From assembly GCA_964493415.1 (NCBI GenBank), contig CAZBND010000025.1:14785-44067 (forward strand): a stretch of DNA of 29,283 nt, read 5' to 3'. Of this stretch, positions 12,064 to 26,720 are shown piece by piece (position 1 is the first letter of the stretch; each line of letters starts with the position of its first letter). Source of the stretch: an uncultured Planctomycetota bacterium (GTDB lineage: Bacteria; Planctomycetota; DG-23; CAZBND01). The position numbers and the translations under genes were made by a program. The notes beneath the pieces were generated by a model, which saw only the letters and a program-made list of their open reading frames with translations, did not search any database and had not been told where the DNA came from.

Positions 12064-13004
12064 TTCGACACCTCCTGCGTCCTGTCCGCGGTGAGATGGA
12101 GGAAAACCTCTTCCAGGCTGGGCTTGCGCGTGCAGAGGTGAGCAATCTCCCATCCCCGGCTGTCGCCAAGGCGAACCACCGCTGCCGCAACGCGTCCAGG
12201 CGTCTGGGTGTACAGGCGATGGCGTCCGGCCTCCTCGCTTACCTGCGCAACGCCCGGGATAGCCTCGAGTTCGGCAGCGCCGGCAGTCCCTCCCTGGAAG
12301 GCCACCTCGGTGTACTGTCTCGAGCGCACTATGCTGCGAACCCCATCGGGCGTGTCGACGGCGGCTATGTGCCCCTTGTTGATGATCGCGACGCGGGTGC
12401 ACATCTCTTCCGCCTCGTCCATGTTGTGCGTGGTCAGGAAAACGGTCAGCCCGGTCCGGTTCAACTCGCTCACGATCTGCCGAATCAACCGGGCGCTTTG
12501 GACGTCGAGGCCGCTTGTGGGTTCGTCCAGGAAGAGGATCTCCGGGCGCGTGACCAGCGCGGCGCAGAGCATCACCCGCTGCCGGAGCCCTTTGGAGAGC
12601 ACGCGCGCCTTCTGCCGCTTGCGTTCTCCAAGGCCCAGCGCATCGAGGAGCCGTTCGCCCTCGCGGGCGCGTTCCTTCCGCGGCACGCCGTGTAGCTCGG
12701 CCATGAGCATCACGTTCTGCCACACGGTCAGGTCGAGGTAGACGTTCGCCTCTTCCGGCACCACGGCGAGGTGGGCGCGAGACAGGAGCGCCTCCTTTCG
12801 GATGTCATGTCCCTGGATGGAGGCCGTTCCCTCGGTTGGCTCCAGCACGCCGGTGAGCATCCGAACCGTGGTCGTCTTCCCCGCCGCGTTCGGGCCCAAA
12901 AAGCCGAAGATTTCGCCCTCCTCAACGCAGAAGCTCACGCGGTCTACCGCTACCAGATCGCCGTAGCGCCGGGTGAGCCCGTTGACTTCAATGGCGTTGG
13001 GCAC
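12060..13004 (-). CDS. ABC transporter ATP-binding protein
   Basis: Walker A GPNAAGKTT, ABC signature LSKGLRQRV, Walker B LFLDEPTSGLD and an H-loop are present. The likely start is GTG near 13004 (MPNAIEVNGLTRRYG) with RBS AAGGGAGGGG 6 nt upstream. The track's 13058 start is a TTG. With the GTG start, overlap with the upstream methyltransferase is about 17 nt. Confidence 0.88.
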   Translation of the reverse strand: MPNAIEVNGLTRRYGDLVAVDRVSFCVEEGEIFGFLGPNAAGKTTTVRMLTGVLEPTEGTASIQGHDIRKEALLSRAHLAVVPEEANVYLDLTVWQNVMLMAELHGVPRKERAREGERLLDALGLGERKRQKARVLSKGLRQRVMLCAALVTRPEILFLDEPTSGLDVQSARLIRQIVSELNRTGLTVFLTTHNMDEAEEMCTRVAIINKGHIAAVDTPDGVRSIVRSRQYTEVAFQGGTAGAAELEAIPGVAQVSEEAGRHRLYTQTPGRVAAAVVRLGDSRGWEIAHLCTRKPSLEEVFLHLTADRTQEVSK

Positions 13005-13632
13005 TCTCGACCCCTCCCTTCTCGAAAAGTAGCCAGAACCCTGGGGGAACGGGCTCAAGCAGCGACTCGCCGAGCCCTGCAGCCCGCGCTTGAAGCTCTA
13101 GCCATTCCGGCCTGCGCTTGCTATACCAGTCATCCAGAGCTTTCTCACTCCGAGCCTTCAGCTCTTGATTCCGGCGACGAAAGAACTCCTGGCGCGCGGA
13201 TTCGGGATACGAGCTGCCAAAGCCCCCGCCGACCAAGGCGCGACCACCGGGGCCGAGGATCCGGTAGACCTCCCGGAGGCCCTGTGCCGGCTCGTCCCAG
13301 AAAAAGACCGAGCCGCGACTGACTACGAGGTTCACCGAGCAATCGGCGAAGGGCATACTCTCCGCGCGGCCGGCGACAGCTAACGCACGCGTTCCCAGGC
13401 CGGAGTGCTTCGCGCTTTCAAGAGCTTTGCGTAAGGCGTTGGCGCGTGGGTCCACAAGAAGGATAGTGCTGCGTGACGCTCTTGCCAGGGCGAGTCCCAG
13501 TCCGCCGCTGCCGCAACCCAGGTCGACCCAAACGCCCTCCTCCGGTCGGCAGTAGCTGAGGACGTCCTCTGCAACGGCGACGAACCAATCCGGCAACCGC
13601 CTGGCAGATTTCGGCCTGACGTCACGTTCCAC
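12988..13632 (-). CDS. Class I SAM-dependent methyltransferase
   Basis: Motif I VDLGCGSGGLGLALA is present, then an acidic post-I residue (LLVDP) and motif II/III region (VNLVVSRGSVFFWDEPAQGLREVYRILGPGGRALV). GTG start. The substrate is unknown. Confidence 0.78.
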   Translation of the reverse strand: MERDVRPKSARRLPDWFVAVAEDVLSYCRPEEGVWVDLGCGSGGLGLALARASRSTILLVDPRANALRKALESAKHSGLGTRALAVAGRAESMPFADCSVNLVVSRGSVFFWDEPAQGLREVYRILGPGGRALVGGGFGSSYPESARQEFFRRRNQELKARSEKALDDWYSKRRPEWLELQARAAGLGESLLEPVPPGFWLLFEKGGVESAQRH

Positions 13633-13719
13633 GGAGCACTTCCGTGGGTTCTATAGTCATTCGCTCTCGGCCTTTTTCACGCAGGGATGTTCCTTCACCT
13701 CGCCGTGGCACTTTCTGAT

Positions 13720-13794
13720 CTACTCGGGAGAGCAATCCTGCGGCTTGCCCTTCAGCTCGCTAGGCTTCAGACACCCCTTCTTTGCGTCAGCCAT
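13720..13794 (-). CDS. Candidate small ORF (24 aa, MADAKKGCLKPSELKGKPQDCSPE) between the ArsR-like regulator and the methyltransferase/ABC operon
   Basis: ATG is preceded by AAGGAGAGG at about 9 nt spacing. The peptide is Lys-rich with two Cys. It was not in the six-frame track because it is too short. It is speculative and may be non-coding. Confidence 0.2.
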   Translation of the reverse strand: MADAKKGCLKPSELKGKPQDCSPE

Positions 13795-13857
13795 GTTGCG
13801 CGTCCTCTCCTTAAGCGCCCGCGCAATTGCTTGCAGGCTGGAAAAAAAAGAAGAGCT

Positions 13858-14163
13858 CTACCCGGATCCTTCGCCGAGTAGTTCGTCCGCCAGCTTTCTC
13901 CATCCGGCCAGCGTTTTGGGGTTCATGCGGTAGTGGACGTAGTACCCGCGCTTGTCGGGGATGACGAGGTCTGCCGCGCGCAGCACTCGCAGGTGCTGCG
14001 AGACCGCCGCGGGGGTGACCCCCAGTCGCGCCGCGAGCGCGTTGACGCACATCGGCTTGTTCCGGATCAGTTGGACTATCCGGAGGCGTGTCGGCGCTGA
14101 AAGGATCTTGAAGATTCGCGCTGCCTTTTCGGGATCGGTCACTTGCGCGCCTTGATTAAGCAT
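13858..14163 (-). CDS. ArsR/SmtB-family transcriptional regulator (no CVC metalloid site)
   Basis: Winged HTH: APTRLRIVQLIRNKPMCVNALAARLGVTPAAVSQHLRVLRAADLV. It is divergent from the ars operon and heads the long minus-strand gene array. A 10-bp palindrome GCATATATGC overlaps its start codon. Confidence 0.85.
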   Translation of the reverse strand: MLNQGAQVTDPEKAARIFKILSAPTRLRIVQLIRNKPMCVNALAARLGVTPAAVSQHLRVLRAADLVIPDKRGYYVHYRMNPKTLAGWRKLADELLGEGSG

Positions 14164-14270
14164 ATATGCAAATACTACAGCGGTCCTTGCCGCCCTGTCA
14201 ATTCTTCGGCTCGAAATTCTGCGGTCAGGCGCGGGGGAGAAACAGGACAGGACGCTGCTTTAGGTCGGGC

Positions 14271-14299
14271 TTGACAAGCGAAGGGGGAGGGGTACAATT
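14271..14299 (+). promoter_or_regulatory. Sigma70-like promoter of the ars operon (TTGACA, 17-nt spacer, TACAAT)
   Basis: TTGACA at about 14271-14276 and TACAAT at about 14294-14299. RBS GGAGG lies at about 14320 and the arsR ATG at 14329. The same 165-nt intergenic region must also hold the divergent promoter for the minus-strand ArsR. Confidence 0.5.
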
Positions 14300-14328
14300 A
14301 GTTATGTGGCGAATTAACGGAGGTAATC

Positions 14329-14694
14329 ATGCGGGAACTTCTGCTCGTAACGAAAGCCTTGGCCGATGAAACGCGCCTTCGGGCTCTTCGCGCGCTGCGC
14401 GGGCGCGAGCTCTGCGTCTGCCAGATCGTGGAGCTTCTGGGGCTTGCGCCCTCAACGGTCTCGAAACACCTGTGGCTCCTCAGACAAGCACGCCTGATTG
14501 AAGGGCGCAAAGAGGGCCGCTGGATGTTCTACCGCCTCGCGGGGCGCGACGCTCCGCAAGTCGCTCAAGAAGCGCTCGCCTGGGTGAATCGGTCGCTCGC
14601 CGCTTCACCGAAGATCAAAGAGGACGGCAAGCGGCTCAAGCAGATACTCAAAATGGACCCGGAGGAAATATGCAGGCGACAAAGCAAAAGCTGA
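14329..14694 (+). CDS. arsR: ArsR-family arsenite-responsive repressor
   Basis: The HTH carries the metalloid-binding ELCVCQIVELLGLAPSTVSKHL (CVC) motif. It is the first gene of arsR-arsC-acr3-arsM. Confidence 0.9.
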   Translation: MRELLLVTKALADETRLRALRALRGRELCVCQIVELLGLAPSTVSKHLWLLRQARLIEGRKEGRWMFYRLAGRDAPQVAQEALAWVNRSLAASPKIKEDGKRLKQILKMDPEEICRRQSKS

Positions 14695-15119
14695 AGCTCC
14701 TTTTTCTTTGCACGGGCAATTCCTGCCGCAGCCAGATGGCTGAAGGCTGGGCTCGGCAACTGAAAGGGGACCTCATAGAATCCTACTCCGCGGGCATCGA
14801 GGCCCGCGGCCTGGACCCGCGCGCGGTAAAGGCTATGGCCGAAGTCGGCGTGGATATCTCCGGGCAAAGGTCGAAGCCCGTCCGGGAAGTCATGGGAATT
14901 GACTTCGACTACGTTATCACTGTCTGCGGGCATGCGCGCGAGAGCTGCCCCATCTTCCCCGGCAAGGCCAAGATAGTTCACCACGGTTTCGACGATCCTC
15001 CCCAACTTGCCGCCGGCGCGAGGACGGAGGAGGAAGCGCTGACCCACTACCGGCGCGTGCGCGACGAAATCCGCGCATACGTCGAAACGCTGCCTGAATC
15101 GCTCGAGAAAGAAAGGTAA
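14670..15119 (+). CDS. arsC: Arsenate reductase, LMW-PTP/thioredoxin-coupled type
   Basis: P-loop [17 protein letters not shown] (CX5R) is present, with downstream Cys ([10 protein letters not shown]) for the thioredoxin-coupled disulfide cascade. It overlaps the arsR 3' end by 25 nt. Confidence 0.9.
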
Positions 15120-15126
15120 ATTTCAT

Positions 15127-16326
15127 ATGGCAACGGAAGGTTTGGCGGAGAGACAGGCAAAGGGCCTGAACGTTTTCGAGAAGTACCTGACCGCCTGGGT
15201 CATCCTGTGCATCATCGGCGGCATTGTGCTGGGGAAGCTCGCCCCGGGGTTCGCGAAGGCCCTCGACGGCATGGCCATCTATGTAGGCGAAGCTCCCGTG
15301 GTCTCGATCCCCATCGCCGTCTGCCTTTTCTTCATGATGTACCCGATAATGGTGAAGATAGACTTCGCCGAGGTCATCAAGGCCGGCAAGAGCGGGAAGC
15401 CCGTGGGACTGACCCTGTTCGTCAATTGGGCCATCAAGCCTTTCACCATGTATGCCATAGCGTTGCTGTTCCTGGGTACGCTGTTCCACGGCCTCATCGG
15501 TCCCGACGCTGTCGACTACGTTAAGATGCCGCTGGGCCTGGACCTGCCCGTCGGCGCGACCCACGGGGCCGGCACGGTCATTATGCACGAAGGCGTCAAG
15601 GTGCTCCAGGTTCCGCTGTGGCGAAGCTATCTGGCCGGCTGCATTCTCTTGGGCATAGCCCCTTGCACGGCCATGGTGCTGGTGTGGGGCTATCTCGCCA
15701 GGGGGAATGACGGCCTGACGCTGGTCATGGTGGCGATCAACTCGCTGACGATGCTTCTGCTCTACGGCGTGTTGGGGGGCTTTCTCTTGGGAGTCGGGCG
15801 GCTGCCGGTTCCCTGGCAGGCCTTGCTGCTGTCGATTTCGATTTACGTCGCCCTGCCGCTGGTGGCGGGCTACGTCTCGCGCAGGTGGCTCATCGCCGCC
15901 AAGGGCCGCGCATGGTTCGAGCAGAAGTTCCTGCACGTCCTGACCCCGATCACGATCATCGCTCTGCTGATCACGTTGGTGCTGCTGTTCAGTTTCAAGG
16001 GCGAAGTGATCCTGGGCAATCCGCTGACGATTCTCTGGATCGCCATCCCTCTGTTCATCCAAACGAACCTCATCTTCTGGTTGGGCTACGGGCTGGCGAG
16101 GCTGCTGAAGCTGCGATACGCGGATGCCGCCCCAGCGGCCATGATCGGCGCGTCGAACCACTTCGAGGTGGCCATCGCGACGGCTACCATGCTGTTTGGA
16201 CTATCGTCGGGCGCCGCTCTGGCCACAGTGGTTGGCGTGCTGATCGAGGTGCCCGTGATGCTCATGCTGGTGAAGATATGCCTTAGAACACAACGTTGGT
16301 TCAAGACTGCGGAGGCCACGACATGA
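15127..16326 (+). CDS. acr3: ACR3-family arsenite efflux permease
   Basis: The N-terminus [24 protein letters not shown] and 10-TM architecture are typical of Acr3/ArsB (BART superfamily). Confidence 0.9.
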
Positions 16327-17138
16327 AAAGCCGCAAAGACGCGCATGAGATCGTAAGGAAGGCATATGGAGACATCGCTAAGAGACAAACGCCATGCTGC
16401 CAGCCGAGGGCCGCTTGCTGCGGGACCGGCTCTACTCCAAGTGCGATGCCGGAGGCGGAGCTGGGGCTTTCGTGCGGAGATCCGGTGGGACTCGCCGAGA
16501 TACGCGAAGGGGAGGTCGTCGTGGACCTTGGGAGCGGAGGGGGAAAGGACGTGTTCATGGCGGCGGAGAAGACCGGGCCGACAGGACAAGCGATCGGGAT
16601 CGACATGACCCGGGAGATGCTGGAACTCGCGAAAAGGAACGCGGTGAAATTCCGCCAGCGCACGGGGCTTGGTAATGTGGAGTTCCGCGAGGGGAAGATC
16701 GAGGAGCTGCCGCTGAAGGATGCTTCGGCTGACCTGGTGATCTCCAACTGTGTGATAAACCTCTCGCCTGATAAGCCGCGCGTCTTCAGAGAGATTTTCA
16801 GGGTGCTCAAGCCCGGCGGGAGGATGGTCGTGAGCGACGTGGTCTTAAATGAGAAGCTGCCTGAAGAACTGCTGAAGGATGAAAGGCTTTACGCGGGCTG
16901 TGTCGCGGGGGCTTTGGTGCGCGAGGATTACCTGAAGGCGATTCGCGACGCGGGATTCGGGAAAGTCGAGGTGTTGGCTGACAGGAATATGTCCCTGGAT
17001 TGGGCGGACCCCATAGCCGAGACGTGGCGCGACGTGCTCGAAGGCGCCGTGGCGAGCATCACGGTGAGGGCGACCAAGAAAGGCCCGGGCCGGAGGAACG
17101 CGGAGATTTGTTCGCAGCGGCGCAGCGTCGCTTCCTAA
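16323..17138 (+). CDS. arsM: Arsenite S-adenosylmethionine methyltransferase
   Basis: ATG 16323 overlaps the acr3 stop as ATGA ([16 protein letters not shown]...). Paired Cys occur in the N-terminal region ([10 protein letters not shown]), SAM motif I is [11 protein letters not shown], and the conserved downstream Cys is present ([11 protein letters not shown]). Confidence 0.85.
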
Positions 17139-17265: not shown

Positions 17266-18300
17266 TTACTTCCCGGCGGGGCATAGTGGTGACGCGCTGA
17301 CGATCCAGCGGCTCGCGTCGACTCTCGTCAGGCCCCGTACGCCTGGGAGCAATTGAGCACTCGAATCGGGGCCTCTGACTGCGACATCCAACCGCGTCGT
17401 GCCGCGTTTTGCATGGGCGACGAGAAGCCGTGCGGCGAGAGGGACATCATCTGTCGGCGAGGGCCCTCGGCAGAGCGCGGTCGGCCCGGGCGAATTCTGC
17501 GGGATAAGCAGCGCATCGTCGGGTCTGACGAGGCTCTCAAGCACGGCGTTCTCCTCTTCGTTTCTGCCCACGACCACCTTGGCTCCGCTGTCCAGCCGGA
17601 AATGACGTCCCAGCTTGAGAAGGCCTATATCGCTCATCTTGCATGAAGGGTCGTAGTCGAACAGGTCCCGCAGGCGGACCGAGAATTCTCTGTCAGTCAG
17701 GAGACAACCTCCGGCGGGGCACAAGTAATCCCTTATGCCGAGCTTGTTTGCCAACGCGATCTGGGGCTTCCGCGAGCGGCCCTGGATGGCTTTGAGCCGC
17801 GCTGTGTCCAGGAGCCCCTTTTCCTCCGGAAGCGATTCCGGAAGAAGCTTACTTGAGAGCGGACGCACAATCAGTCCGGCCAGTCCTGACTCGTGCTCAA
17901 TGATTTCCATCGCGTGGCGGCGCTGGGACATGGGGCGCTCGCCGAGCACTTCCCCCGTTGCGATGAAGTCGGCGCCCGTTTCCTCCATGCGACGCCGGGC
18001 TTGAGAGAACATGTGAATGCGGCAGTCCAGACATGGGTTCATGCCGCGGCCTCGGCCGAATCTTGGATGCTTAACGACCTGGAGGTATTCCTCGCCGCAG
18101 GCGAGTATCTGAACAGGGATGCCCAACTGTTCGGCCGCTTTTCGGGCTGCCGGGCATCCCAGCCCCTTGGGCGTACAGCGGCAGAAGGGGGAGACGAAGT
18201 TGAGCGCCTCAATTTGAATTCCCATGTCGAGAAGCAGCTTGCCGGCGAGGGTGCTGTCAAGGCCTCCGGAAAGCAATAGAATCGCCTTTGGCATGTTCAC
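17266..18300 (-). CDS. PP-loop ATP pyrophosphatase, ThiI-like tRNA/sulfur-transferase domain without a THUMP domain (putative Fe-S or Cys-dependent thiolation enzyme)
   Basis: The N-terminal PP-loop is AILLLSGGLDSTLA. A ThiI-type motif ATGEVLGERPMSQRRHAMEIIEHESGLAGLIVRPLSS matches ThiI VTGEALGQVSSQT...LRPL. Cys clusters are FCRCTPKGLGC and NPCLDC. It is divergent from the Rrf2/sulfur cluster. Confidence 0.55.
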   Translation of the reverse strand: MNMPKAILLLSGGLDSTLAGKLLLDMGIQIEALNFVSPFCRCTPKGLGCPAARKAAEQLGIPVQILACGEEYLQVVKHPRFGRGRGMNPCLDCRIHMFSQARRRMEETGADFIATGEVLGERPMSQRRHAMEIIEHESGLAGLIVRPLSSKLLPESLPEEKGLLDTARLKAIQGRSRKPQIALANKLGIRDYLCPAGGCLLTDREFSVRLRDLFDYDPSCKMSDIGLLKLGRHFRLDSGAKVVVGRNEEENAVLESLVRPDDALLIPQNSPGPTALCRGPSPTDDVPLAARLLVAHAKRGTTRLDVAVRGPDSSAQLLPGVRGLTRVDASRWIVSASPLCPAGK

Positions 18301-18521
18301 TGTGTCCGTTTCTACGTGTTGCCGGGTGGTTTAGGGGGTCTTTGCCGGCCTCGGCCCGGCTGGAGAGTTTCGCCCTGCTCTGGGGGTGTTGCTCGACCTT
18401 TTCATTGTAATCGCCGGCCGGAGAAAAGCAACTAGGAGCGTAAGGTATGATGCGCGAAAGACTTGCGGCAGGTGGTCGTGGGATTTGCGGGGGAGGGGAG
18501 AGAAAAAATCGGGTGGCCTAT

Positions 18522-18550
18522 TGACAGGTAGGGTGAGGCGGCTATAATTC
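18522..18550 (+). promoter_or_regulatory. Near-consensus sigma70 promoter (TTGACA, about 17 nt, TATAAT) for the Rrf2-led sulfur cluster
   Basis: The sequence reads cctaTTGACAggtagggtgaggcggcTATAATtccag, about 27 nt upstream of the Rrf2 start (18577). Coordinates are approximate to +/-2. Confidence 0.55.
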
Positions 18551-18576: not shown

Positions 18577-18993
18577 ATGCTTCTCGAGAACGCCAGAATG
18601 AATCATGCGTGCGTCGCGCTATTGGAGCTCTCCCAGCACTGGGAGACGGGGGAACTGGTGAAGACCAAGGACATATCTCGGGAGAATTCGCTGCCGCACA
18701 AGTATCTGACGCAGATACTGCTTCAGCTTAGGAGTGCCGGGCTTGTTGTGAGTGTCCGTGGATCGCGCGGGGGATTCAGGCTCGCGCGCCATCCTCGGGA
18801 GATAACGGTGTGGGATGTTTTTCAAGCGGTAGAGAGCACAGGCCGCGAACGCAGGGAGGGAAAGGCCGGGCTGCGGGAGGGGCAGCGGCTACTGGCGAGC
18901 GTTTGGAGAGAGGCGGCCGGCGGGGTGAGGGAGACGCTGGAGAAGTACACGTTCGAGGATTTGCGCACGGCGGCGCAGGTGTACCACATATGA
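18577..18993 (+). CDS. Rrf2-family transcriptional regulator (CymR/IscR-like)
   Basis: The N-terminal wHTH is RMNHACVALLELSQH...SRENSLPHKYLTQILLQLRSAGLVVSVRGSRGGFRLAR. It is the first gene of the co-directional sulfur assimilation cluster. Confidence 0.88.
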   Translation: MLLENARMNHACVALLELSQHWETGELVKTKDISRENSLPHKYLTQILLQLRSAGLVVSVRGSRGGFRLARHPREITVWDVFQAVESTGRERREGKAGLREGQRLLASVWREAAGGVRETLEKYTFEDLRTAAQVYHI

Positions 18994-19058: not shown

Positions 19059-19772
19059 GTGACACGGATCGGATTTGAGGATAGGGCGAGCCTTCAGTCC
19101 CTGAGCGCGGAAGGGCTCTTGACATGGGCGCTGGATGAGTTCGGTGACGAGGTCTCGCTGGCGTGCAGCTTTGGCGCGGAGGATGTGGTGCTGGTCGACA
19201 TGCTGTGCAGGCTCACCTCGAAGCCCAGAGTGTTTGCCATTGACACCGGCAGGCTTCACGAGGCGACGTACGAGGTCATGGAGCGAATCAGGGAGAAATA
19301 TGGTCTCGACCTCGACATCTACTTTCCGTCGCGAGGGGAAGTGGAACGGCTGGTCAGCGAGAAGGGTCTTTATTCATTCCGCACCAGCTTGGAGGGACGG
19401 AAAGAATGCTGTCGGATAAGGAAGGTGGAACCACTGGGGCGGGCGCTGAAAGGGCTCAAGGCGTGGATAACGGGGCTCAGACGCGACCAGAGCATTACCA
19501 GAACGGAGGTTGCGAAGGTGGAAGTCGACGACGCGCACGGGGGAATCGTTAAGCTCAATCCCCTTGCCGACTGGAGTTCTGAGGCGGTGTGGGAGTACAT
19601 CCGGGCCAATGACGTTCCCTACAACGCTCTGCACGACGTCGGCTATCCGAGCATCGGCTGCGAGCCGTGCACACGGGCTGTGAAGCCCGGGGAGCGTCCG
19701 AGAGCCGGCCGCTGGTGGTGGGAGAATCCGGTTGATAAAGAATGTGGTCTTCATGTTGAGGAAAGGAAGTGA
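19059..19772 (+). CDS. cysH: Adenylyl-sulfate (APS) reductase, thioredoxin-dependent, Fe-S type (PAPS reductase family)
   Basis: It has the PAPS_reduct fold (SFGAEDVVLVDML), an Fe-S cluster Cys pair KECCRIRK plus SIGCEPCT, and the C-terminal catalytic ECGLH. The CC..CxxC motif indicates APS rather than PAPS specificity. GTG start with RBS GGAGG. Confidence 0.88.
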   Translation: MTRIGFEDRASLQSLSAEGLLTWALDEFGDEVSLACSFGAEDVVLVDMLCRLTSKPRVFAIDTGRLHEATYEVMERIREKYGLDLDIYFPSRGEVERLVSEKGLYSFRTSLEGRKECCRIRKVEPLGRALKGLKAWITGLRRDQSITRTEVAKVEVDDAHGGIVKLNPLADWSSEAVWEYIRANDVPYNALHDVGYPSIGCEPCTRAVKPGERPRAGRWWWENPVDKECGLHVEERK

Positions 19773-19774
19773 CC

Positions 19775-21013
19775 ATGCCCTCTTTAGTCTTGCCGCACGG
19801 CGGGAAGCTGATCGACCGAACAGCCGAAGGGAAAGAGCGCGCGGAATTGCTTGACAGGTTCGCGGGGTACCCCGCGGTTGAAATAGACCGGCTTGCCGCT
19901 TCGGACATCGAGCTCTTGGCCACTGGAGCGTTCAGCCCGCTTAAAGGGTTCATGGGGCGGGATGATTATGAGTCGGTGCTGGCGTCCAACCGGTTGGCTT
20001 CGGGGCTGCCGTGGACCATACCTGTAACGCTATCGGTGTCGCGCCGAGCAGCCAAAAGAGTGAGCTCCGCCGGCGATGTGGCCCTTATTTGCCCGGAAAA
20101 TGAAACGAGGGCGGTTCTTCATCTCGAGGACGTGTTCGAACACCCCAAAGAGAGGGAATCGGTACAAGTGTACGGTACCAGCGATTTCGCGCATCCGGGT
20201 GTAGCGCGGCTTTACGGGCGGGGAGAAGTTCTGCTGGGCGGGAGCATAACCGTGGTTTCGCTTCCGAAACACGGCACTCTCCTCGAGTACCGTCACGCGC
20301 CTGCAGAAACGCGGGCGGCTTTTTCGGAGCGGGGATGGAAGCGTATTGCCGGGTTCCAGACGAGGAACCCAATCCACCGCGCGCACGAGTACATCCAAAA
20401 GTGCGCTCTTGAGATAGTGGACGGGCTTTTCCTTCAGCCGCTGGTCGGGGACACCAAAGCTGACGACATACCGGCGGAGGTGAGCATTCGAAGCTACGAG
20501 GTCGTCACGAGCAGGTATTATCCCAAGGATCGCGTCTTCCTGGGGGCGTTTCCGGGATACATGAGATATGCCGGGCCGCGGGAAGCGGTTTTTCACGCCT
20601 TGGTGCGGAAGAACTACGGCTGCAGTCACTTCATCGTGGGGAGAGATCATGCGGGTGTCGGTGATTACTACGGACCGTTTGATGCGCACAAGATATTCGA
20701 AAGCTTTGGCCCGGACGAGATCGGGATAACGCCGTTGTTTTTTGACCACACATTCTATTGCCGCGATTGCGAGGGGATGTCCTCCCCCAAGACGTGCCCG
20801 CATTCCTTGGGGTCGAGATGCTTGCTCTCAGGGAAAAGGGTGCGGGAACTGCTGGCTGAGGGGAAGACGCCTCCCACGGAGCACACGAGGCCCGAGGTAG
20901 CGGAGATTCTGGTGGAAGCGTACCGGAAGGCTAACGGGGCGTCCAATTCGGAGCCGGAGGGGGAGCGTACGCCTGCGGGAAGCTCGTGCGCAAAGGTGAA
21001 GAAAGGTGGCTGA
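19775..21013 (+). CDS. sat: Sulfate adenylyltransferase (ATP sulfurylase, homo-oligomeric type)
   Basis: Motifs GFQTRNPIHRAHE and FIVGRDHAGVG are present, along with an N-terminal PUA-like domain (LVLPHGGKLIDR). ATG 19775 follows RBS GAGGAAAGGAAG. An alternative GTG 19769 overlaps the cysH stop as GTGA. Confidence 0.9.
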   Translation: MPSLVLPHGGKLIDRTAEGKERAELLDRFAGYPAVEIDRLAASDIELLATGAFSPLKGFMGRDDYESVLASNRLASGLPWTIPVTLSVSRRAAKRVSSAGDVALICPENETRAVLHLEDVFEHPKERESVQVYGTSDFAHPGVARLYGRGEVLLGGSITVVSLPKHGTLLEYRHAPAETRAAFSERGWKRIAGFQTRNPIHRAHEYIQKCALEIVDGLFLQPLVGDTKADDIPAEVSIRSYEVVTSRYYPKDRVFLGAFPGYMRYAGPREAVFHALVRKNYGCSHFIVGRDHAGVGDYYGPFDAHKIFESFGPDEIGITPLFFDHTFYCRDCEGMSSPKTCPHSLGSRCLLSGKRVRELLAEGKTPPTEHTRPEVAEILVEAYRKANGASNSEPEGERTPAGSSCAKVKKGG

Positions 21014-21291
21014 TGAGGATGTCGGATGACCTTCGGCCGGTGCGCTCGGCTGACCTCACGCGGGAAGTCTGCCCGATGACCTTCGTGAAGTTGAAGCTCC
21101 ACTTGGAGCTGATTCAGCCCGGGGAGGTTCTCGAAGTGTTGTTGAAGGAAGGCGAGCACATGCGGGACGTGCCTCGGTCGGTGAAAGAAGAGGGGCATAA
21201 GATCGTGGCGGTGGAACCGGTCGGCGAGAACTACAGAGTGTTTGTCCAAAAGGCGGTCTGCGGGGGTTCGGGGGAGGTAAGCAAGCAATGA
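21010..21291 (+). CDS. TusA/SirA-like sulfur-carrier or sulfurtransferase family protein
   Basis: It is about 93 aa with ADLTREVCPMTFVKLKLHLELIQPGEVLEVL. This is a CPxP-like motif with the second Pro replaced (CPMT) in a two-layer alpha/beta fold. ATG 21010 overlaps the sat stop as ATGA, and its stop overlaps the next start as ATGA. Confidence 0.65.
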   Translation: MMRMSDDLRPVRSADLTREVCPMTFVKLKLHLELIQPGEVLEVLLKEGEHMRDVPRSVKEEGHKIVAVEPVGENYRVFVQKAVCGGSGEVSKQ

Positions 21292-22577
21292 ATTTCGTGA
21301 AGGGACTCAAATGCAGAGAAGAAGGATGCGGCGGGAGGTATCCCAAAGAGCCGTTGCACATATGCGAGCACTGCTTCGGGAAATTGGAGGTTGACTACGA
21401 CTACGAGGGGATAGCGAGGGGGATATCGAGGGATGTGATTGAACAGCGCCCGGCGACGATGTGGCGGTATCGTGAGCTGCTTCCGATAGACGGCGATCCG
21501 ACTGCGGGCCTCACGACAGGATTCACCCCGCTGTTCCGAGCCGAGAGGCTGGCCCGTGCGCTGGAACACGACGAGGTATACATCAAAAACGATGCGGTGA
21601 ATTCCCCGACGCTTTCTTTTAAGGATCGAGTGGTCTCCGTGGCGTTGTCGAAGGCGAAGGAGTTCGGATTCGACACCGTAGCGTGCGCGACGACCGGCAA
21701 CCTTGGGAATAGCCTTGCAGCGCAGTCCGTCAAGGCAGGTCTTCGGTGTTTCATATTCATGCCGGCGGATCTCGAGCAGGGGAAGATCGTCGCGACGTCG
21801 GTGTACGGTGTGAACGTAATCGGGATATCGGGGAACTACGACAACGTGAATCGACTGTGCACGGAAATAGCGGATCGCTGCGGGTGGGGGTTCGTGAACA
21901 TAAATTTGAGGCCGTACTATGCCGAGGGGTCCAAGACGTACGGATTTGAGATAGTGGAGCAGCTTGGCTGGCGCGCGCCGAAGCACGTGGTTGTGCCGAT
22001 GGCGGGTGGGTCTCTGGTTACCAAGGTGCACAAGGCGATAAAGGAGTGCCGAGAAGTCGGGCTGATAGAGGGTGCCGATACGCGCATACACGGGGCCCAG
22101 GCATCGGGGTGCAATCCCATTTCCGCGGCGATCAAGGCCGGCGAGGAGATCATTACTCCCGTCAGACCCGACACCATCGCTCATTCGATAGCCATCGGCA
22201 ATCCGGCGGACGGGTACTATGCAGTGGAGACGATTCGCGATAGCGGGGGGTGGGCCGAGGACGTTACCGATGGGGAGATTGTGGAGGGGATCAGGCTGCT
22301 CGCTGAAACAGAGGGTGTATTCACTGAGACGGCGGGAGGGGTCACAGTGGCGGTCACGAGAAAGCTCATCGAGCAGGGCCACATACCACGGGACGAGTCG
22401 GTGGTGATCTCGATCACGGGGAACGGGCTCAAGACCCAGGAGGCGGTGCTCGGGAAAGTCAGGGAGAGGGTGATCATAGAGGCGCGGTACGAAGACTTTG
22501 AGGCGGCGCTCGCGTCACTGGAGGCTCGCGATCAAGGAGCCGCCCTGTCCGCAAAGGAGGAAGCCAAGTGCCTGTGA
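21288..22577 (+). CDS. Threonine-synthase-like PLP-dependent enzyme (fold type II) with an N-terminal zinc ribbon; candidate O-phosphohomoserine-dependent sulfhydrylase
   Basis: It has an N-terminal C-x4-C...C-x2-C (CREEGCGG...ICEHCFG) and the PLP lysine motif SPTLSFKDRVVS. The Gly-rich loop and C-terminal domain are typical of ThrC. It is translationally coupled upstream (TusA-like) and downstream (sulfur carrier, GTGA overlap). Confidence 0.8.
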   Translation: MNFVKGLKCREEGCGGRYPKEPLHICEHCFGKLEVDYDYEGIARGISRDVIEQRPATMWRYRELLPIDGDPTAGLTTGFTPLFRAERLARALEHDEVYIKNDAVNSPTLSFKDRVVSVALSKAKEFGFDTVACATTGNLGNSLAAQSVKAGLRCFIFMPADLEQGKIVATSVYGVNVIGISGNYDNVNRLCTEIADRCGWGFVNINLRPYYAEGSKTYGFEIVEQLGWRAPKHVVVPMAGGSLVTKVHKAIKECREVGLIEGADTRIHGAQASGCNPISAAIKAGEEIITPVRPDTIAHSIAIGNPADGYYAVETIRDSGGWAEDVTDGEIVEGIRLLAETEGVFTETAGGVTVAVTRKLIEQGHIPRDESVVISITGNGLKTQEAVLGKVRERVIIEARYEDFEAALASLEARDQGAALSAKEEAKCL

Positions 22578-23071
22578 CAGTTAGAACATCCTCTGTTTTG
22601 AGGGGTCTCCTTCAAGGGAACCTCGAGGTGGAGTCTGAAGGGAAGACCGTGCGCGAGGTGCTCACTTCGCTGGGCGTGCTTGAGCGTATTTGTGACCCGT
22701 CGGGGGGAATCAGGCGGCATTTCAACATTCACGTGAATGACGGCGACGACATAAGACTTGGACGGGGGCTCGAAACGAAGGTGAAATCCGGAGACGTTGT
22801 CACCATCCTGTCGGCGATTTCAGGCGGAGCGGAATATCGGCGCAAGGTGTGGTTGACCTTTCCAAAGGAACAGGTCGCTCGCCCTCTTGTCTGGGAAGTA
22901 GGCCAACGATTCGAAGTGGTCACCAACATTCGCCAGGCGAGCGTTTCCAGCGAAATCGGCATAGTGGGGCTGGAGATTACGGGAGAACGGGAGGAAGTGA
23001 TGCGCGCGGTCGATTTTCTTGAAGAACAGGGGGTCTCTGTAGAGCCGATCGAGCTGGACGTGGTGGAGTGA
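22574..23071 (+). CDS. ThiS/MoaD-like sulfur-carrier protein with internal Gly-Gly (about residues 84-85) fused to a C-terminal NIL domain
   Basis: The N-terminal beta-grasp ends ...NIHVNDGDDIRLGRGLETKVKSGDVVTILSAISGG (compare ThiS ...HIVQDGDQILLFQVIAGG). It is followed by about 80 aa that match the NIL / MetN-C2-like domain (LTFPKEQVARPLVWEVGQRFEVVTNIRQASVSSEIGIVGLEITGEREEVMRAVDFLEEQGVSVEPIE). GTG 22574 overlaps the upstream stop as GTGA. Confidence 0.72.
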   Translation: MTVRTSSVLRGLLQGNLEVESEGKTVREVLTSLGVLERICDPSGGIRRHFNIHVNDGDDIRLGRGLETKVKSGDVVTILSAISGGAEYRRKVWLTFPKEQVARPLVWEVGQRFEVVTNIRQASVSSEIGIVGLEITGEREEVMRAVDFLEEQGVSVEPIELDVVE

Positions 23072-23074
23072 GGC

Positions 23075-23920
23075 GTGAAAGAATTAGGGTTCAACGAAAG
23101 CCAGATTAACAGATACTCCCGGCACATCCTCCTCAAGGATGTCGGGCTGGAGGGGCAGAAGAAACTGTCAAGAGCCGGCGTATTTGTGGTGGGGGCGGGG
23201 GGGCTTGGCTCGCCGGCGCTCTACTACCTTGCGGCGGCCGGGATCGGCAGGATAGGCGTGGTCGATTCGGACGTTGTGGACCTGTCTAACCTGCAAAGGC
23301 AAGTGCTTTTTGGGGTGGACGATATCGGCAAGAGCAAGGCCCGGGCTGCCGCTGACGCACTTGCCCGTCAGAACCCTGACTGCAATGTACTGGCCGCGGA
23401 AGAGCGGCTCACTTCCGGGAACATAGAAAGCCTGTGCGATGGCTACGACGTGGTCTTGGACGGTAGCGACAACTTCCCGACGCGGTTTCTGGTGAACGAC
23501 TTCTGTTGGCTGCGAGGAATCCCGCTGGTTTCCGCCGCGGTCGTTCAGTTCGACGGGCAATTGCTGACGGTGGTGCCGGAGGAGAAGACTCCTTGTTACC
23601 GGTGTCTTGTCGGGGAGCCGCCGGAGCCGGGGACAATCCCAAGTTGCCAAGAGGCGGGGGTGCTTGGTGCGGTTGCGGGCGTTGTCGGTACGCTGCAGGC
23701 CGCTGAGGCGCTTAAGCTCATCATCGGCATCGGCAAGCTCCTTACGAATAGCCTCCTCGTTTACAGCGCGTTGGAGGGCAAATTCAACCTCTTCCGTCGA
23801 TCCAGCGACCCGGATTGTCCGCTGTGTGGGACAAGCCCGCGTATCACGGGTCTCAAGGACTATGAGCAGGTGTGTTCCGCGCGAGAAACCGTGGCGCGGA
23901 GTGGGAGGTTGAGTACGTGA
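23075..23920 (+). CDS. MoeB/ThiF/HesA-family E1-like adenylyltransferase (no rhodanese domain)
   Basis: The nucleotide-binding motif is VVGAGGLGSPALYYLAAAGIGRIGVVDSDVVDLSNLQRQ. Zinc Cys pairs CYRC...CPLC and a conserved Cys in PSCQEAGVLG are present. GTG start 3 nt after the carrier stop. Confidence 0.9.
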   Translation: MKELGFNESQINRYSRHILLKDVGLEGQKKLSRAGVFVVGAGGLGSPALYYLAAAGIGRIGVVDSDVVDLSNLQRQVLFGVDDIGKSKARAAADALARQNPDCNVLAAEERLTSGNIESLCDGYDVVLDGSDNFPTRFLVNDFCWLRGIPLVSAAVVQFDGQLLTVVPEEKTPCYRCLVGEPPEPGTIPSCQEAGVLGAVAGVVGTLQAAEALKLIIGIGKLLTNSLLVYSALEGKFNLFRRSSDPDCPLCGTSPRITGLKDYEQVCSARETVARSGRLST

Positions 23921-24429
23921 AGCTTCTTGCGGATACTGCCAACTCCATAATTGAAGAGGCGAAGAAAGATGACTGTGAATGCTGCGGGATTCTTTTGGCC
24001 GACCCGCTCGCGCCGAGTGTGGGGCGTTGGGTCTATCCAGCGCCCAACCGAGCAACGAGGAGGAAGCAATCGCGGTTTGTCCTCGACCCCGCGACTCACC
24101 TAAGGGTGGTGGAGTGGGAGGCAGAAGGACGGGTGGTAGTGGTCGGGTACTATCATTCGCATCCGACGTCGCCGGCTGAGCCTTCGCCGGATGATATCGA
24201 CAGGGCACTTTCGGGGGTCACGTACCTCATCGCGGGGTTGGAGGGGAGAACTTGGACTTTACGTGCTTGGCGGAAGGTCGGTGAGGAATTCGTTGAAGAA
24301 CCCATAGAGTTGGAGATGGGCGAATGGCACAGACCGTTGCAGAAAAGCTGGGCAGCAGGCCGGCGCTGCGCCGGTTCAGCGATGCGAGAGAACTCATACC
24401 CAGTCCCGCCAACCCGACCCCGTTGGTGA
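23917..24429 (+). CDS. JAMM/MPN+ (Mov34) zinc metalloprotease (Mec+/HcyD/QbsD-like)
   Basis: The JAMM motif is E...GYYHSHPTSPAEPSPDDI (HxHx7Sx2D) and the N-terminus is VKLLADTANSIIEEAKKDDCECCGILL. The likely start GTG 23917 overlaps the E1 stop as GTGA. Its 3' end overlaps the next gene by about 106 nt. Confidence 0.82.
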   Translation: MKLLADTANSIIEEAKKDDCECCGILLADPLAPSVGRWVYPAPNRATRRKQSRFVLDPATHLRVVEWEAEGRVVVVGYYHSHPTSPAEPSPDDIDRALSGVTYLIAGLEGRTWTLRAWRKVGEEFVEEPIELEMGEWHRPLQKSWAAGRRCAGSAMRENSYPVPPTRPRW

Positions 24430-25316
24430 GACTCAACAGAGTGCTCGCGGGCTTGGGAATGGACGTGTTCTTGAAGCTCGAGTGGTTCAGCCCGTTCGGC
24501 TCTACAAAGGATCGTGCGGCGAAGTATCTGCTGGATGGGATGGCGAAGAGGGGGGAATTGGAGGGGAGGGAAATAGTCGAGCCTACATCGGGGAATACGG
24601 GCATAGCCCTGGCGGCGCTGGGGGGAATCATGGGCAAGAAAGTGACTGTTACGGTGCCAAGCGGAGTGCCGGAGGAGAAGCAGATCATATTGAGAATGCT
24701 CGGCGCCGAGGTCTGGCCTACGCCGGACGATCTATGTCCGGTGGAGCATCCCAAGGACGGGGCGATCGCATTGGCGCATTCGTTCGTCAGAGGGGAATCG
24801 GGGCGGGGGCGCTACGCGATGCCCAACCAGTACGAGAACCCGGACAACGTCCGTGCACACTACGAGACGACGGGGCCGGAAATCTGGCGGCAGACCGAAG
24901 GCCAGGTTAGGTACTTCTTTGCCGGCGTGGGAACTTGCGGCACTATCACGGGGGTGGGCCGGTTCCTTAAGGAGAAAGATGCTCGGATACGGATAATCGG
25001 AATCGAACCCCAGAAGGGGCACAGACTGCCGGGCCTGAAGAACCTGGAGGAGTCCAAGGAGCCGGGCATCCTGGAGCGAGACCTGATAGACAGGATCGTC
25101 CGAGTGGATGACGGTCCGGCTTACGAAATGACGAGGCGGCTGTTCAGAGAAGAAGGACTGATAGTTGGGCCGTCAACCGGTGCCATTGTTCAAGGGATTG
25201 CGGAGTGCTCGCTGCACGGGGAAGGCGTGGCGGTAGGCATTTCGCCCGATGGCGGTTTTAAGTACGCGAGCTATTTCGCCGATGTCCTCGGTGACGAAGG
25301 CAAGCCTCAGGTGTGA
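24324..25316 (+). CDS. Cysteine synthase family PLP enzyme (CysK/CysM-like; candidate thiocarboxylate-dependent O-phosphoserine or O-acetylserine sulfhydrylase)
   Basis: TPLVRLNRV is followed by the PLP lysine motif SPFGSTKDRAAKYLL, the Gly-rich loop EPTSGNTGIALA, and GVGTCGTITG. ATG 24324 is preceded by GGAG. Confidence 0.88.
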   Translation: MAQTVAEKLGSRPALRRFSDARELIPSPANPTPLVRLNRVLAGLGMDVFLKLEWFSPFGSTKDRAAKYLLDGMAKRGELEGREIVEPTSGNTGIALAALGGIMGKKVTVTVPSGVPEEKQIILRMLGAEVWPTPDDLCPVEHPKDGAIALAHSFVRGESGRGRYAMPNQYENPDNVRAHYETTGPEIWRQTEGQVRYFFAGVGTCGTITGVGRFLKEKDARIRIIGIEPQKGHRLPGLKNLEESKEPGILERDLIDRIVRVDDGPAYEMTRRLFREEGLIVGPSTGAIVQGIAECSLHGEGVAVGISPDGGFKYASYFADVLGDEGKPQV

Positions 25317-26230
25317 AGGGGGCATCTATGAGTTCAGAGAGTGAACCGGTTGCGTACGACATAGCCGAGCTCAAAGCCGGAGGACTGATGAAGCAGAGCG
25401 AAAAGGATTTGTTCAGCGTTCGGCTGCGTGTCGTCGGCGGCTACATGAAGGCGGACCAGCTTGAGAAGCTTGCCGAAATCAGTCGGAAGTACGGTAGGGG
25501 CCATATTCACCTCACGACGCGCCAGGGAGCCGAGATACCGTACATCAGTTTCCATGACGTTGAGGATGTTCGATGCGAGCTGGCGGAGGTGGGCCTTGAA
25601 TTCGGCGCGTGCGGCACCAGGGTAAGGACGATTACAGCCTGTCAGGGGCTCTCCTGTTACAACGGCCTGATAGACGCCCAGGCGTTGGCGGCGAAGCTGG
25701 ACGAGAAGTTCTTTGGCAAAGGAGGATACCCGCACAAGTTCAAGATAGGCATTGCGGGATGCCCGAACGCGTGTACAAAGCCCCACGAGAACGACCTCGG
25801 CATAATGGGTAACATTCTGAAGGTGTTCGTCCCGGACCGTTGCACTCTATGCGGTTTGTGCGTCAAGGCCTGCCCGATCGAGGGAGCGCTGGAGATCATT
25901 GAAGGGGAACTCCAGTACCATCAGTCCGCGTGCGTGCGATGCGGAGCCTGCATAGCATCGTGCCCGACTGACGCGTGGGTCAGGGAAGCGGTTTCGTACG
26001 CAGTGTTCGCTGGCGGCAAGATGGGGAAGAATCCGCGCTTCGCGGACAGGCTTCCCTTTGACATAACCGACGAGAACAGCCTGGTGGTTCTCATCGACCG
26101 CGTTTTGGAGTGGTACAAGCGGAACGGGGTGAGGGGCGAACGCTTTGGAACAACCATAGATCGCGTTGGACTGGGAGCGCTCGTATCAGACCTGCAACAG
26201 GACCTTGGCGACGGGGGGCATAATGTTTGA
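25313..26230 (+). CDS. Small siroheme-[4Fe-4S] sulfite reductase with an inserted 2x[4Fe-4S] ferredoxin domain (AsrC / small assimilatory Sir / Dsr-like-protein type)
   Basis: The siroheme-cluster coupling motifs are TACQGLSCYNG (C-x5-C) and IAGCPNAC (C-x3-C). The ferredoxin motifs are CTLCGLCVKACP and CVRCGACIASCP. A GTG start overlaps the cysM-like stop as GTGA. No AsrA/AsrB partners are present. Confidence 0.78.
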   Translation: MKGASMSSESEPVAYDIAELKAGGLMKQSEKDLFSVRLRVVGGYMKADQLEKLAEISRKYGRGHIHLTTRQGAEIPYISFHDVEDVRCELAEVGLEFGACGTRVRTITACQGLSCYNGLIDAQALAAKLDEKFFGKGGYPHKFKIGIAGCPNACTKPHENDLGIMGNILKVFVPDRCTLCGLCVKACPIEGALEIIEGELQYHQSACVRCGACIASCPTDAWVREAVSYAVFAGGKMGKNPRFADRLPFDITDENSLVVLIDRVLEWYKRNGVRGERFGTTIDRVGLGALVSDLQQDLGDGGHNV

Positions 26231-26720
26231 TCTGTCAACGCTTGAGTCCAAAGTCCAAGAGTACTTCGGAGATGACGTAAGGCGGATGACACATACGCGG
26301 GAGGTTCTGGGCTACGCGCAGCGGATCCTTCGAGAGGTGGCGGCTAATGAAGAGGTCGTCCTGGCGGCAGCGCTGCTGCATGATATCGGGATACCGGAAG
26401 CGGAGCGGAGGCATGGGAGTGCCGCCGGGCGCTATCAGGAACTCGAAGGGCCCCCAATCGCGGAACGGATGCTCCGTGAACTGGGGGCCTCTCCGGAAAG
26501 TACGGATGCAGTCTGTGAACTGGTGGCGTGTCACCATACGCCCGGCAAGGTCGACTCTGCGGAGTTCGACGTTCTTTGGGATGCGGACTGGCTGGTCAAC
26601 TTGGCTGATGAGTTCAACGGAGCTTCCAGAGAAGGGCTTAAGGTGGCGATCGAGAGGGTCTTCCGAACTGAGACCGGACGGCGGCTGGCGGAAGGAGTCT
26701 ATCTTGACGGGGGCGGATAG
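26223..26720 (+). CDS. HD-domain metal-dependent phosphohydrolase
   Basis: The HD motif AAALLHDIG and downstream His (ACHHTP, D...D) are present. ATG at about 26223 overlaps the sulfite reductase stop, indicating translational coupling. Substrate unknown. Confidence 0.72.
   Translation: MFDLSTLESKVQEYFGDDVRRMTHTREVLGYAQRILREVAANEEVVLAAALLHDIGIPEAERRHGSAAGRYQELEGPPIAERMLRELGASPESTDAVCELVACHHTPGKVDSAEFDVLWDADWLVNLADEFNGASREGLKVAIERVFRTETGRRLAEGVYLDGGG

Follow-up and report, generated by a model that had tools for sequence, protein, structure and literature searches.

What is the role of a ThiS-type sulfur carrier whose Gly-Gly lies in the middle of the protein and is followed by a further folded domain? 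This question is raised by a gene in a 29,283-nucleotide stretch of DNA from an uncultured Planctomycetota bacterium (GenBank assembly GCA_964493415.1, contig CAZBND010000025.1, positions 14,785 to 44,067 of the forward strand; the whole stretch is hereafter called the window), in which a ThiS/MoaD-like β-grasp is joined to a NIL domain resembling the C2 domain of MetN. The gene lies within a tight, partly overlapping series that runs from an Rrf2-family regulator gene to a sulfite reductase gene. We consider it reasonably probable that the product is a two-part precursor in an operon leading from sulfate to homocysteine and cysteine by way of a protein thiocarboxylate, in which a JAMM protease would cut after Gly87 and the NIL part would serve as a third component.

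The fused gene and its split relatives

The fused open reading frame (ORF) occupies positions 22568-23071 of the plus strand, starts with GTG and encodes 167 residues, with ThiS and NIL read in one frame without a stop codon. The start at 22568 is preferred over 22574, since the N-termini of homologues read MxVTVRT and an AAGGAGG sequence lies 7 nt upstream of this GTG. Position 22574, taken as the start in a preliminary description of the window made from its sequence alone, is the third codon, and the Gly85 of that description is Gly87 here. The stop of the upstream ThrC-like gene and the start of the fusion share 10 nt.

Residues 1-87 (22568-22828), ending in ...ILSAISGG, form a CysO-like β-grasp that is assigned from Pfam, alignment to PDB sequences, AlphaFold2 and Foldseek. 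The Pfam ThiS family (PF02597) matches residues 18-87 with 35.2 bits against a cut-off of 22.5 (E 1.9e-8). Among PDB sequences, residues 1-87 match the whole of Mycobacterium tuberculosis CysO (3dwg_C; E 1.4e-10, or 2e-23 with the family profile) and also cover the full length of the Amycolatopsis carrier 4n6e_B, with S85-G86-G87 falling under the C-terminal AGG of both. The modelled β-grasp superposes on these two carriers with target-normalised Foldseek template modelling (TM) scores of 0.80-0.82, and the identity to CysO is about 41% in the structural alignment. The codons of Gly86-Gly87 (22823-22828) mark where JAMM is predicted to cut (after G87) and where adenylation and thiocarboxylation are predicted to take place, as judged from homologue conservation, split orthologues and low model confidence. 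A short basic linker, AEYRRK (residues 88-93, 22829-22846), follows and would become the N-terminal tail of the NIL protein after the predicted cleavage; its length varies among fused families. The NIL domain (residues 94-167 and stop, 22847-23071) is assigned from Pfam, alignment and model: PF09383 matches residues 95-159 with 46.4 bits against a cut-off of 24 (E 3.8e-12), and residues 96-161 align with the C2 domain of Escherichia coli MetN (profile E 3e-8). In the translated fusion the Gly-Gly is thus not a free C-terminus, 80 residues following it in the ORF, so that proteolysis is needed in the fused form to free it.

The full-length AlphaFold2 model, built on a 32-sequence alignment, contains two confident domains with a mean predicted local distance difference test score (pLDDT) of 88.9, which falls below 50 only at residues 86-88 and 164-167. 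In this model the Gly-Gly sits in a flexible hinge, and the predicted TM score (pTM) of 0.53 means that the two domains have no fixed orientation. The β-grasp ending in Gly-Gly, the MetN C2-like C-terminal half and the joining of a β-grasp to a ferredoxin-like NIL fold, as proposed in the preliminary description, are all borne out by these profile, alignment and model results.

A search of 5.8 billion proteins yields 197 homologue clusters, and all 120 of those listed carry both Pfam domains in 167-176 residues, nearly all in 167-169. An identical 167-residue protein is found on contigs from three independent samples, and the Gly-Gly is kept in 119 of the 120 close homologues. Among the 1.84 billion representatives searched, more distant fused families of 171-188 residues have basic linkers of variable length after the Gly-Gly. 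The nearest named relatives are metagenome-assembled genomes (MAGs) of Armatimonadota, Planctomycetota, Poribacteria and Verrucomicrobiota.

The window proteins were mapped onto 80 related loci, which are the best 80 of 249 ranked by tblastn from species-level genomes; all are MAGs, and the subset is biased. The fused gene is present in only 17 of them. In the other 63, mostly from Verrucomicrobiota, the carrier is a protein of 90-91 residues that ends ...PAIAGG-stop. Downstream of it NIL has an ORF to itself, which starts at its own ATG in every case except L024 and specifies a Lys/Thr-rich N-terminal tail. Because these split orthologues stop exactly at the Gly-Gly, the internal Gly-Gly of the fusion is read as the true carrier terminus, as the preliminary description had supposed, and the sequence pattern identifies the fusion as a Rosetta-stone link between two partner proteins. 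Two other candidates were rejected. Stop-codon read-through was considered for the split loci, 61 of the 63 being in frame against a chance expectation of about one third for ThiS and NIL in the same frame. It is ruled out because the selection of long high-scoring segment pairs among the best 80 of 249 favours in-frame pairs, because 27 of the 61 in-frame loci have further in-frame stop codons, and because the NIL ORFs have ATGs of their own. A stand-alone ThiS of 87 residues (P0135) adjoins a Thi4 thiazole synthase gene and is a thiamine-context ThiS, not a split orthologue.

The NIL domain and its possible role

Modelled alone, the NIL part reaches a pLDDT of 93.5 and a pTM of 0.81 with a β-α-β-β-α-β topology, and its 11 best PDB matches are MetN C2/NIL domains (TM scores 0.73-0.81, root-mean-square deviations 1.5-2.6 Å). 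In an ungapped alignment, N120 and A124 of the motif N120-I-R-Q-A124 fall on N295 and A299 of MetN, and both residues are invariant in the close-family alignment. In MetN, N295 hydrogen-bonds L-methionine held by the neighbouring C2 domain, the N295A substitution abolishes methionine binding, and A299 lies on the dimer strand (PMC6233128). From this correspondence, binding of a small ligand by the NIL domain is plausible, although N120 lies in the motif that defines all NIL domains and methionine is not specified thereby. A role as a persulfide or Fe-S relay is ruled out because the NIL half has no cysteine in the window and is cysteine-free in 114 of 117 homologues. The top Foldseek match of the full-length model is 1V8C, a 168-residue 'MoaD related protein' of Thermus thermophilus with an internal AGG at residues 86-87 and about 80 residues after it. 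Its C-terminal domain is not NIL-like: 1V8C is absent from the top 50 matches of the NIL-only model, and no sequence match to that domain was found, so that it serves as an analogy only.

The NIL domain is at least as conserved as the carrier. Within the family the mean pairwise identity is 71% for NIL and 68% for the carrier, and between the window and the split loci it is 54% for NIL and 39% for the carrier half. The same domain is also found in other combinations. As an alternative attachment to the same system, it forms the C-terminal domain of a JAMM (JAB) protease fusion in P0155 (L005 113-862), between a CysK/M-like gene and an APS (adenosine 5'-phosphosulfate) kinase gene, and in P0186 (L088 5692-6405), at a locus with PAPS (3'-phosphoadenosine 5'-phosphosulfate) reductase and ThiS. 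Tandem NIL-NIL proteins lie directly after a 91-residue ThiS gene (P0132, L092 490-1023) and beside TusA and Rrf2 genes (P0129, L093 1213-1707), and about 10 further representative clusters have the tandem form, which suggests that NIL works as a dimer. Free NIL proteins of about 80 residues also belong to this NIL subfamily. The view of NIL as a mere appendage of the carrier therefore does not stand; because NIL is separately encoded and no less conserved than the carrier in most lineages, and also occurs in tandem or fused to JAMM, the fusion is better read as a two-partner polyprotein.

On these sequence patterns, the most economical reading is that NIL is an accessory subunit of the homocysteine branch, one that binds a small ligand and is probably dimeric. 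It would most likely act as a dimeric sensor of methionine, homocysteine or a close analogue, tuning this branch as the C2 domain throttles MetN, and in the fused form a ligand on NIL could also gate maturation or cleavage. A bolder proposal, which we regard as rather improbable, is that NIL is a general, hitherto unrecognised homocysteine- and methionine-sensing subunit of carrier-dependent amino-acid synthesis and that a ligand-gated JAMM cut sets the carrier supply. If so, the ligand-gated fusion would be a bacterial counterpart of the ubiquitin-fusion precursors, used for metabolic feedback, and sensing would explain the presence of NIL in two unrelated homocysteine pathways (DUF39/NIL-ferredoxin and ThrC-like/ThiS/NIL).

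The main rival to a sensor is a catalytic accessory or docking subunit, needed for activity rather than for regulation; NIL might, for example, bind the four-carbon substrate (O-phosphohomoserine) or product (homocysteine), or connect the ThrC-like enzyme with the carrier. Such a role is suggested by the placement of NIL in one S-adenosylmethionine (SAM)-regulated operon with the ThrC-like and ThiS genes (see below), where transcription is already under feedback control, and its fusions to the carrier or to JAMM suggest that the partners associate physically. NIL/ferredoxin proteins, moreover, are genetically required and not merely regulatory in the DUF39 pathway, an unrelated route to homocysteine (PMC5764234). 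Against it, the closest characterised NIL domains, those of MetN C2, are allosteric, the AlphaFold2 model places no confident contact between ThiS and NIL (pTM 0.53), and the available summaries of the MetM/MetO system of Streptomyces albulus list only MetM, MetO, Mec and MoeZ, which indicates that NIL is not universally needed. A docking or catalytic subunit is thus tenable but tentative, and a ligand-binding regulatory subunit is preferred.

Maturation at the Gly-Gly and the enzymes served

The protease expected to process the fusion is encoded close by, at 23917-24429 of the plus strand. It is a JAMM/MPN+ metalloprotease (Pfam Prok-JAB, E 2.9e-15) in which E36, H95-x-H97, S105 and D108 are invariant in the alignment, leaving the E...HxH...S..D motif intact, and it is predicted to cut after G87. 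When a profile from four JAMM sequences is run against all six-frame ORFs of the loci, JAMM is found adjacent to the carrier in 15 of 16 non-redundant fused loci, and also in L024, L086, L087 and L085, whose carriers end in GGL, GGAA, GGAA and GGAWA. JAMM adjacency thus occurs in 19 of the 22 loci with residues after the Gly-Gly (NIL or a short tail of 1-4 residues) and in 0 of the 57 with Gly-Gly-stop, a difference (Fisher p ~2e-15) whose independence the test overstates because nearly all Gly-Gly-stop loci belong to one phylum, Verrucomicrobiota, so that the association is confounded by phylogeny. This distribution is what a pro-protein model predicts, and it agrees with the processing by an adjacent JAMM that the preliminary description put forward. 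Experimental precedent is provided by DRJAMM, which cuts a MoaD-MoaE fusion and exposes the terminal Gly (PMC8832034).

The most constant partner of the carrier is the ThrC-like pyridoxal 5'-phosphate (PLP) enzyme, encoded in the window at 21288-22577 (plus strand; Pfam PALP E 6.8e-72; TIGR00260 thrC 305 bits) and bearing an N-terminal zinc-ribbon-like motif of four cysteines. In about 75 of the 80 loci its gene immediately precedes that of the carrier. Directly 5' of the ThrC-like gene, Rfam detects SAM-I riboswitches with 73-96 bits against a gathering score of 44.4, in all nine loci checked, each of them flagged beforehand by our own covariance model; two of the Rfam-confirmed loci, L018 and L019, carry the fused gene. 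This model, built from those Rfam hits, finds the riboswitch in 61 of the 82 loci searched (range L018-L087), for example at 8475-8610 in L025 and 8541-8653 in L018. The ThrC-like protein of the window is 60-70% identical to those under riboswitch control. In public records the genes behind these riboswitches are mostly named threonine synthase; they are probably mis-annotated homocysteine synthases of the MetM type. In one verrucomicrobial variant (L020-L032, L070) the locus contains Rrf2, the SAM riboswitch, ThrC-like, ThiS and NIL genes and two PAPS-reductase-like genes, and neither an E1 activating enzyme nor a JAMM was found within 10 kb in this variant.

Because the ThrC-like gene stands next to the carrier and SAM riboswitches precede its orthologues, we conclude from this gene arrangement that the ThrC-like/ThiS/NIL unit is probably a homocysteine-forming module of the methionine pathway and not one for threonine. 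The connection to the ThrC-like MetM route, suggested in the preliminary description, is strengthened accordingly. In the proposed scheme, JAMM would cut after Gly87, releasing the mature carrier and a free NIL protein in equimolar amounts, and the ThiF-type E1 encoded at 23075-23920 would adenylate Gly87. The thiocarboxylate of Gly87 would then form with sulfide that the sulfite reductase supplies and TusA possibly relays. The ThrC-like (MetM-type) enzyme would use the thiocarboxylate and O-phosphohomoserine to form homocysteine, and the CysM-type enzyme, probably a second user of the thiocarboxylate, would form cysteine with activated serine. Like Mec+ and HcyD, JAMM would probably also detach the finished amino acid and in this way recycle the carrier.

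Several points weigh against this scheme, in addition to the phylogenetic confounding of the JAMM pattern and the generality of the N120 motif. JAMM proteases of the Mec+ and HcyD kind release cysteine or homocysteine from their carriers, and this second role alone could explain the presence of JAMM. Neither Rfam nor our covariance model detects a SAM riboswitch in the window, which carries the Rrf2 regulator instead, as do its nearest relatives, so that the MetM-type assignment of its ThrC-like protein is reached only indirectly, through the riboswitches of the orthologues. One close homologue, P0074 (L001 10001-10504), has Gly-Ser in place of Gly-Gly (AIAGSDEV) in an otherwise complete operon; the change could be a sequencing artefact, could be tolerated or could mark an inactive copy. 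The divergent ThiS-like-NIL proteins P0134, P0151, P0167 and P0238 have neither the Gly-Gly nor the RRxF motif. Finally, cleavage, thiocarboxylation, enzyme specificity and ligand binding are all steps that we infer.

These exceptions bear most directly on the view that the protein works uncleaved, its β-grasp being a non-carrier adaptor tethered to NIL while free sulfide feeds the PLP enzymes. The loss of the Gly-Gly from the divergent proteins means that, in some lineages, a two-domain protein can survive without being cleaved; P0134 (L094 232-771) still follows a JAMM gene, and P0151 (L095 6001-6519) stands in a non-sulfur context. For the window protein, this view is unlikely: the Gly-Gly is retained in all close homologues except P0074, the split orthologues terminate exactly there, JAMM adjacency follows C-terminal extensions, and the junction is flexible in the model. 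A dedicated E1, which acts only on a free C-terminus, also adjoins.

Still less probable is that the ThrC-like protein is an ordinary threonine synthase and that the carrier serves the CysM-type enzyme only, as in the CysO/CysM pair of M. tuberculosis. The protein scores 305 bits where the NCBIfam thrC equivalog requires 167, threonine synthases head its matches in the PDB, the carrier resembles CysO, and a CysM-type gene is present in the operon. The units of orthologous ThrC-like, ThiS and NIL genes are preceded, however, by SAM riboswitches and not by threonine-related controls, and many of them have no CysM-type gene nearby. According to secondary sources, annotation as threonine synthase is moreover a routine error for MetM.

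Known carriers such as HcyS-Ala and QbsE-CF bear short C-terminal extensions, and disposable tails of 1-4 residues are present on the related carriers of L024, L085 and L086. By analogy, NIL could be a pro-peptide or cap to be discarded, which keeps the carrier from being adenylated too early and has no function once released. This is very unlikely for a domain that is at least as conserved as its carrier, that 63 loci encode as an independent gene with a start codon of its own and that recurs in NIL-NIL and JAB-NIL forms. A sequencing or assembly frameshift joining two genes, a concern raised in the preliminary description and in keeping with the split versions of other phyla, is rejected, given the fusion at nearly uniform length in all 120 listed clusters, the same sequence in three independent samples, and a linker and NIL domain in one frame with no stop codon.

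The preferred scheme, a carrier-NIL precursor feeding homocysteine and cysteine synthesis, resembles several known systems, each in part. As described in PMC12172450 and the GapMind 2026 preprint, the MetM/MetO system of S. albulus likewise has a ThrC-like PLP enzyme encoded beside a ThiS/MoaD-type carrier, requires JAMM (Mec) and E1 (MoeZ) proteins whose counterparts are both encoded in the window, and has a SAM riboswitch upstream of metM (PMC12172450), as in the 61 related loci here. It differs in that the carrier here is fused to NIL or followed by a NIL gene, none being listed for Streptomyces in secondary sources, and in that the window has an E1 without a rhodanese domain, TusA and sulfate-reduction genes in the operon, and Rrf2 instead of the riboswitch. 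The CysO/CysM/Mec+ system of M. tuberculosis (PDB 3DWG, 3DWM) shares the alignable carrier and the CysM-type enzyme and JAMM alongside. CysO itself, however, stops with its Gly-Gly and lacks a NIL domain, the constant partner here is the ThrC-like enzyme, and in the PDB ranking the CysM-type enzyme of the window is nearer to enterobacterial CysM than to that of M. tuberculosis.

In the HcyS/HcyD/HcyF/MetY/Sir system of Wolinella succinogenes, the JAMM protease trims a C-terminal extension from the carrier. The extension is a single residue and not a folded domain, and the enzyme served is an O-acetylhomoserine sulfhydrylase and not a ThrC-like enzyme. The extended carrier, JAMM and rhodanese-less E1 are nevertheless encoded in one operon, as in the window, together with SirA/TusA, PAPS reductase, ATP sulfurylase and sulfite reductase (PMC1779556). 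The window cluster corresponds to the 'type 4e' sulfur-metabolism neighbourhood of ubiquitin-like, JAB and E1 proteins described by Iyer, Burroughs and Aravind in 2006 (PMC1779556); NIL has no occurrence in the text of that survey. Fusions of MoaD to MoaE (Deinococcus DR2607/DRJAMM; mycobacterial MoaX) share the carrier, the internal Gly-Gly, the folded partner and the need for a JAMM cut (PMC8832034), but their partner is the catalytic MoaE of molybdopterin synthesis, in place of NIL in amino-acid synthesis. On the side of the NIL domain, the C2 domain of the methionine importer MetNI has the same fold and motif but is attached to an ATP-binding cassette (ABC) ATPase, whereas the NIL of the window is carried on a sulfur carrier and its relatives are also free-standing. 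The NIL/ferredoxin proteins of the DUF39 pathway (MA1822, DvMF_0262) are likewise dedicated to homocysteine formation, but with a 4Fe-4S ferredoxin partner, a chemistry of aspartate semialdehyde and sulfide, and no sulfur-carrier protein (PMC5764234).

The pathway type (CysO/CysM/Mec+, HcyS/HcyD/HcyF, MetM/MetO) and JAMM-processed carrier fusions are therefore known. In the literature searched, outside of which the primary MetM/MetO paper lies, no account was found of NIL fused or adjacent to sulfur carriers, and within it the ThiS-GG-NIL fusion is uncharacterised, as the preliminary description had it. The thiocarboxylate routes of CysO, HcyS and MetO have so far been described with a carrier, an E1, a JAMM and a PLP enzyme. 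NIL adds a further conserved player, which is carrier-fused, JAMM-fused, duplicated, or adjacent under a SAM riboswitch in about 250 related genomes; all of the 80 loci examined come from uncultured bacteria. If NIL senses methionine or homocysteine, this would give it a general function outside MetN and place a post-translational control point in a methionine pathway that was discovered only recently. Many genes named threonine synthase, molybdopterin synthase sulfur carrier and NIL domain-containing protein would need re-annotation as a homocysteine-synthesis module, with consequences for the auxotrophies predicted in Verrucomicrobiota, Armatimonadota, Planctomycetota and other groups.

The surrounding sulfur gene cluster

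All genes of the cluster lie on the plus strand. At its head, an Rrf2-family regulator of the CymR/IscR-like kind (18577-18993; NCBIfam rrf2_super, 96 bits) is preceded by a promoter-like TTGACA-16-TATAAT element (18521-18548) with 12 of 12 matches, a consensus match only and a possible operon promoter. An Rrf2 gene also precedes the module in L001, L002, L004 and L010. The regulator is followed by a PAPS/APS reductase (19059-19772; Pfam PAPS_reduct, E 1.5e-50), an ATP sulfurylase with PUA_2 and ATP-sulfurylase domains (19769-21013; Pfam E 5.5e-91) and a TusA/SirA-like sulfurtransferase (21019-21291; Pfam TusA, E 8.5e-18). The TusA ORF is open from 20986, and its start at 21019 follows the gene calls on the identical contigs L089 and L090.

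Downstream of the ThrC-like and fused genes, the ThiF/MoeB-type E1 gene begins 3 nt past the fusion stop codon; its product matches Pfam ThiF (E 4.7e-81), and the NCBIfam matches to MoeB and UbaA are restricted to its adenylation domain. The JAMM ORF is open from 23872, so that it overlaps the ThiF gene by 49 nt from the first possible start and by 4 nt (GTGA) from the likely GTG start at 23917. At its other end the C-terminal tail of JAMM, about 35 residues longer than in homologues, carries the ORF 106 nt into the CysM-type gene. On L089 and L090, the gene callers leave this JAMM stretch of about 400 nt empty. The CysM/CysK-type PLP cysteine synthase (24324-25316; Pfam PALP, E 2.4e-66) has its best PDB matches to CysM/OASS-B, and a gene of this type is present in most fused loci. 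The series ends with a small sulfite reductase containing an inserted 2x[4Fe-4S] ferredoxin domain (25328-26230; Pfam NIR_SIR, E 2.7e-27, with NIR_SIR_ferr and Fer4), which is the presumed source of sulfide; its ORF is open from 25313, and the start follows the gene calls in L089. This gene order recurs in L001, L002, L004 and many other loci from Armatimonadota, Planctomycetota and other MAGs. In L002, the sulfite reductase (12774-15086) is a protein of 770 residues with a C-terminal TusA domain, and this fusion argues that sulfite reductase and TusA are functionally linked in the delivery of sulfur.

Several neighbouring genes lie at or beyond the borders of the cluster. A PP-loop ATPase with a ThiI/MnmA-like HUP domain and an NFACT-R_2 domain (17266-18300, minus strand) is divergent and upstream of the Rrf2 gene, and a 55%-identical homologue stands directly beside the ThrC-like and ThiS-NIL genes in L004/L011 and L034. 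In some genomes this ATPase may take part in the system, for instance as a thiolation enzyme that draws on the carrier. An HD-domain gene (26166-26720, plus strand) shares its first 65 nt with the end of the sulfite reductase gene. Mapping of the window proteins onto the related loci revealed no counterpart of it there, so that it probably lies outside the module. Just 5' of the sulfur cluster, an ACR3-type arsenite carrier of the SBF family and an ArsM-like arsenite methyltransferase (15127-17138, plus strand) are unrelated to it. At 2179-8109 on the minus strand, a resistance-nodulation-division (RND) efflux trio comprises an AcrB-like pump, a membrane-fusion protein and an outer-membrane factor, the last of which implies a diderm host.

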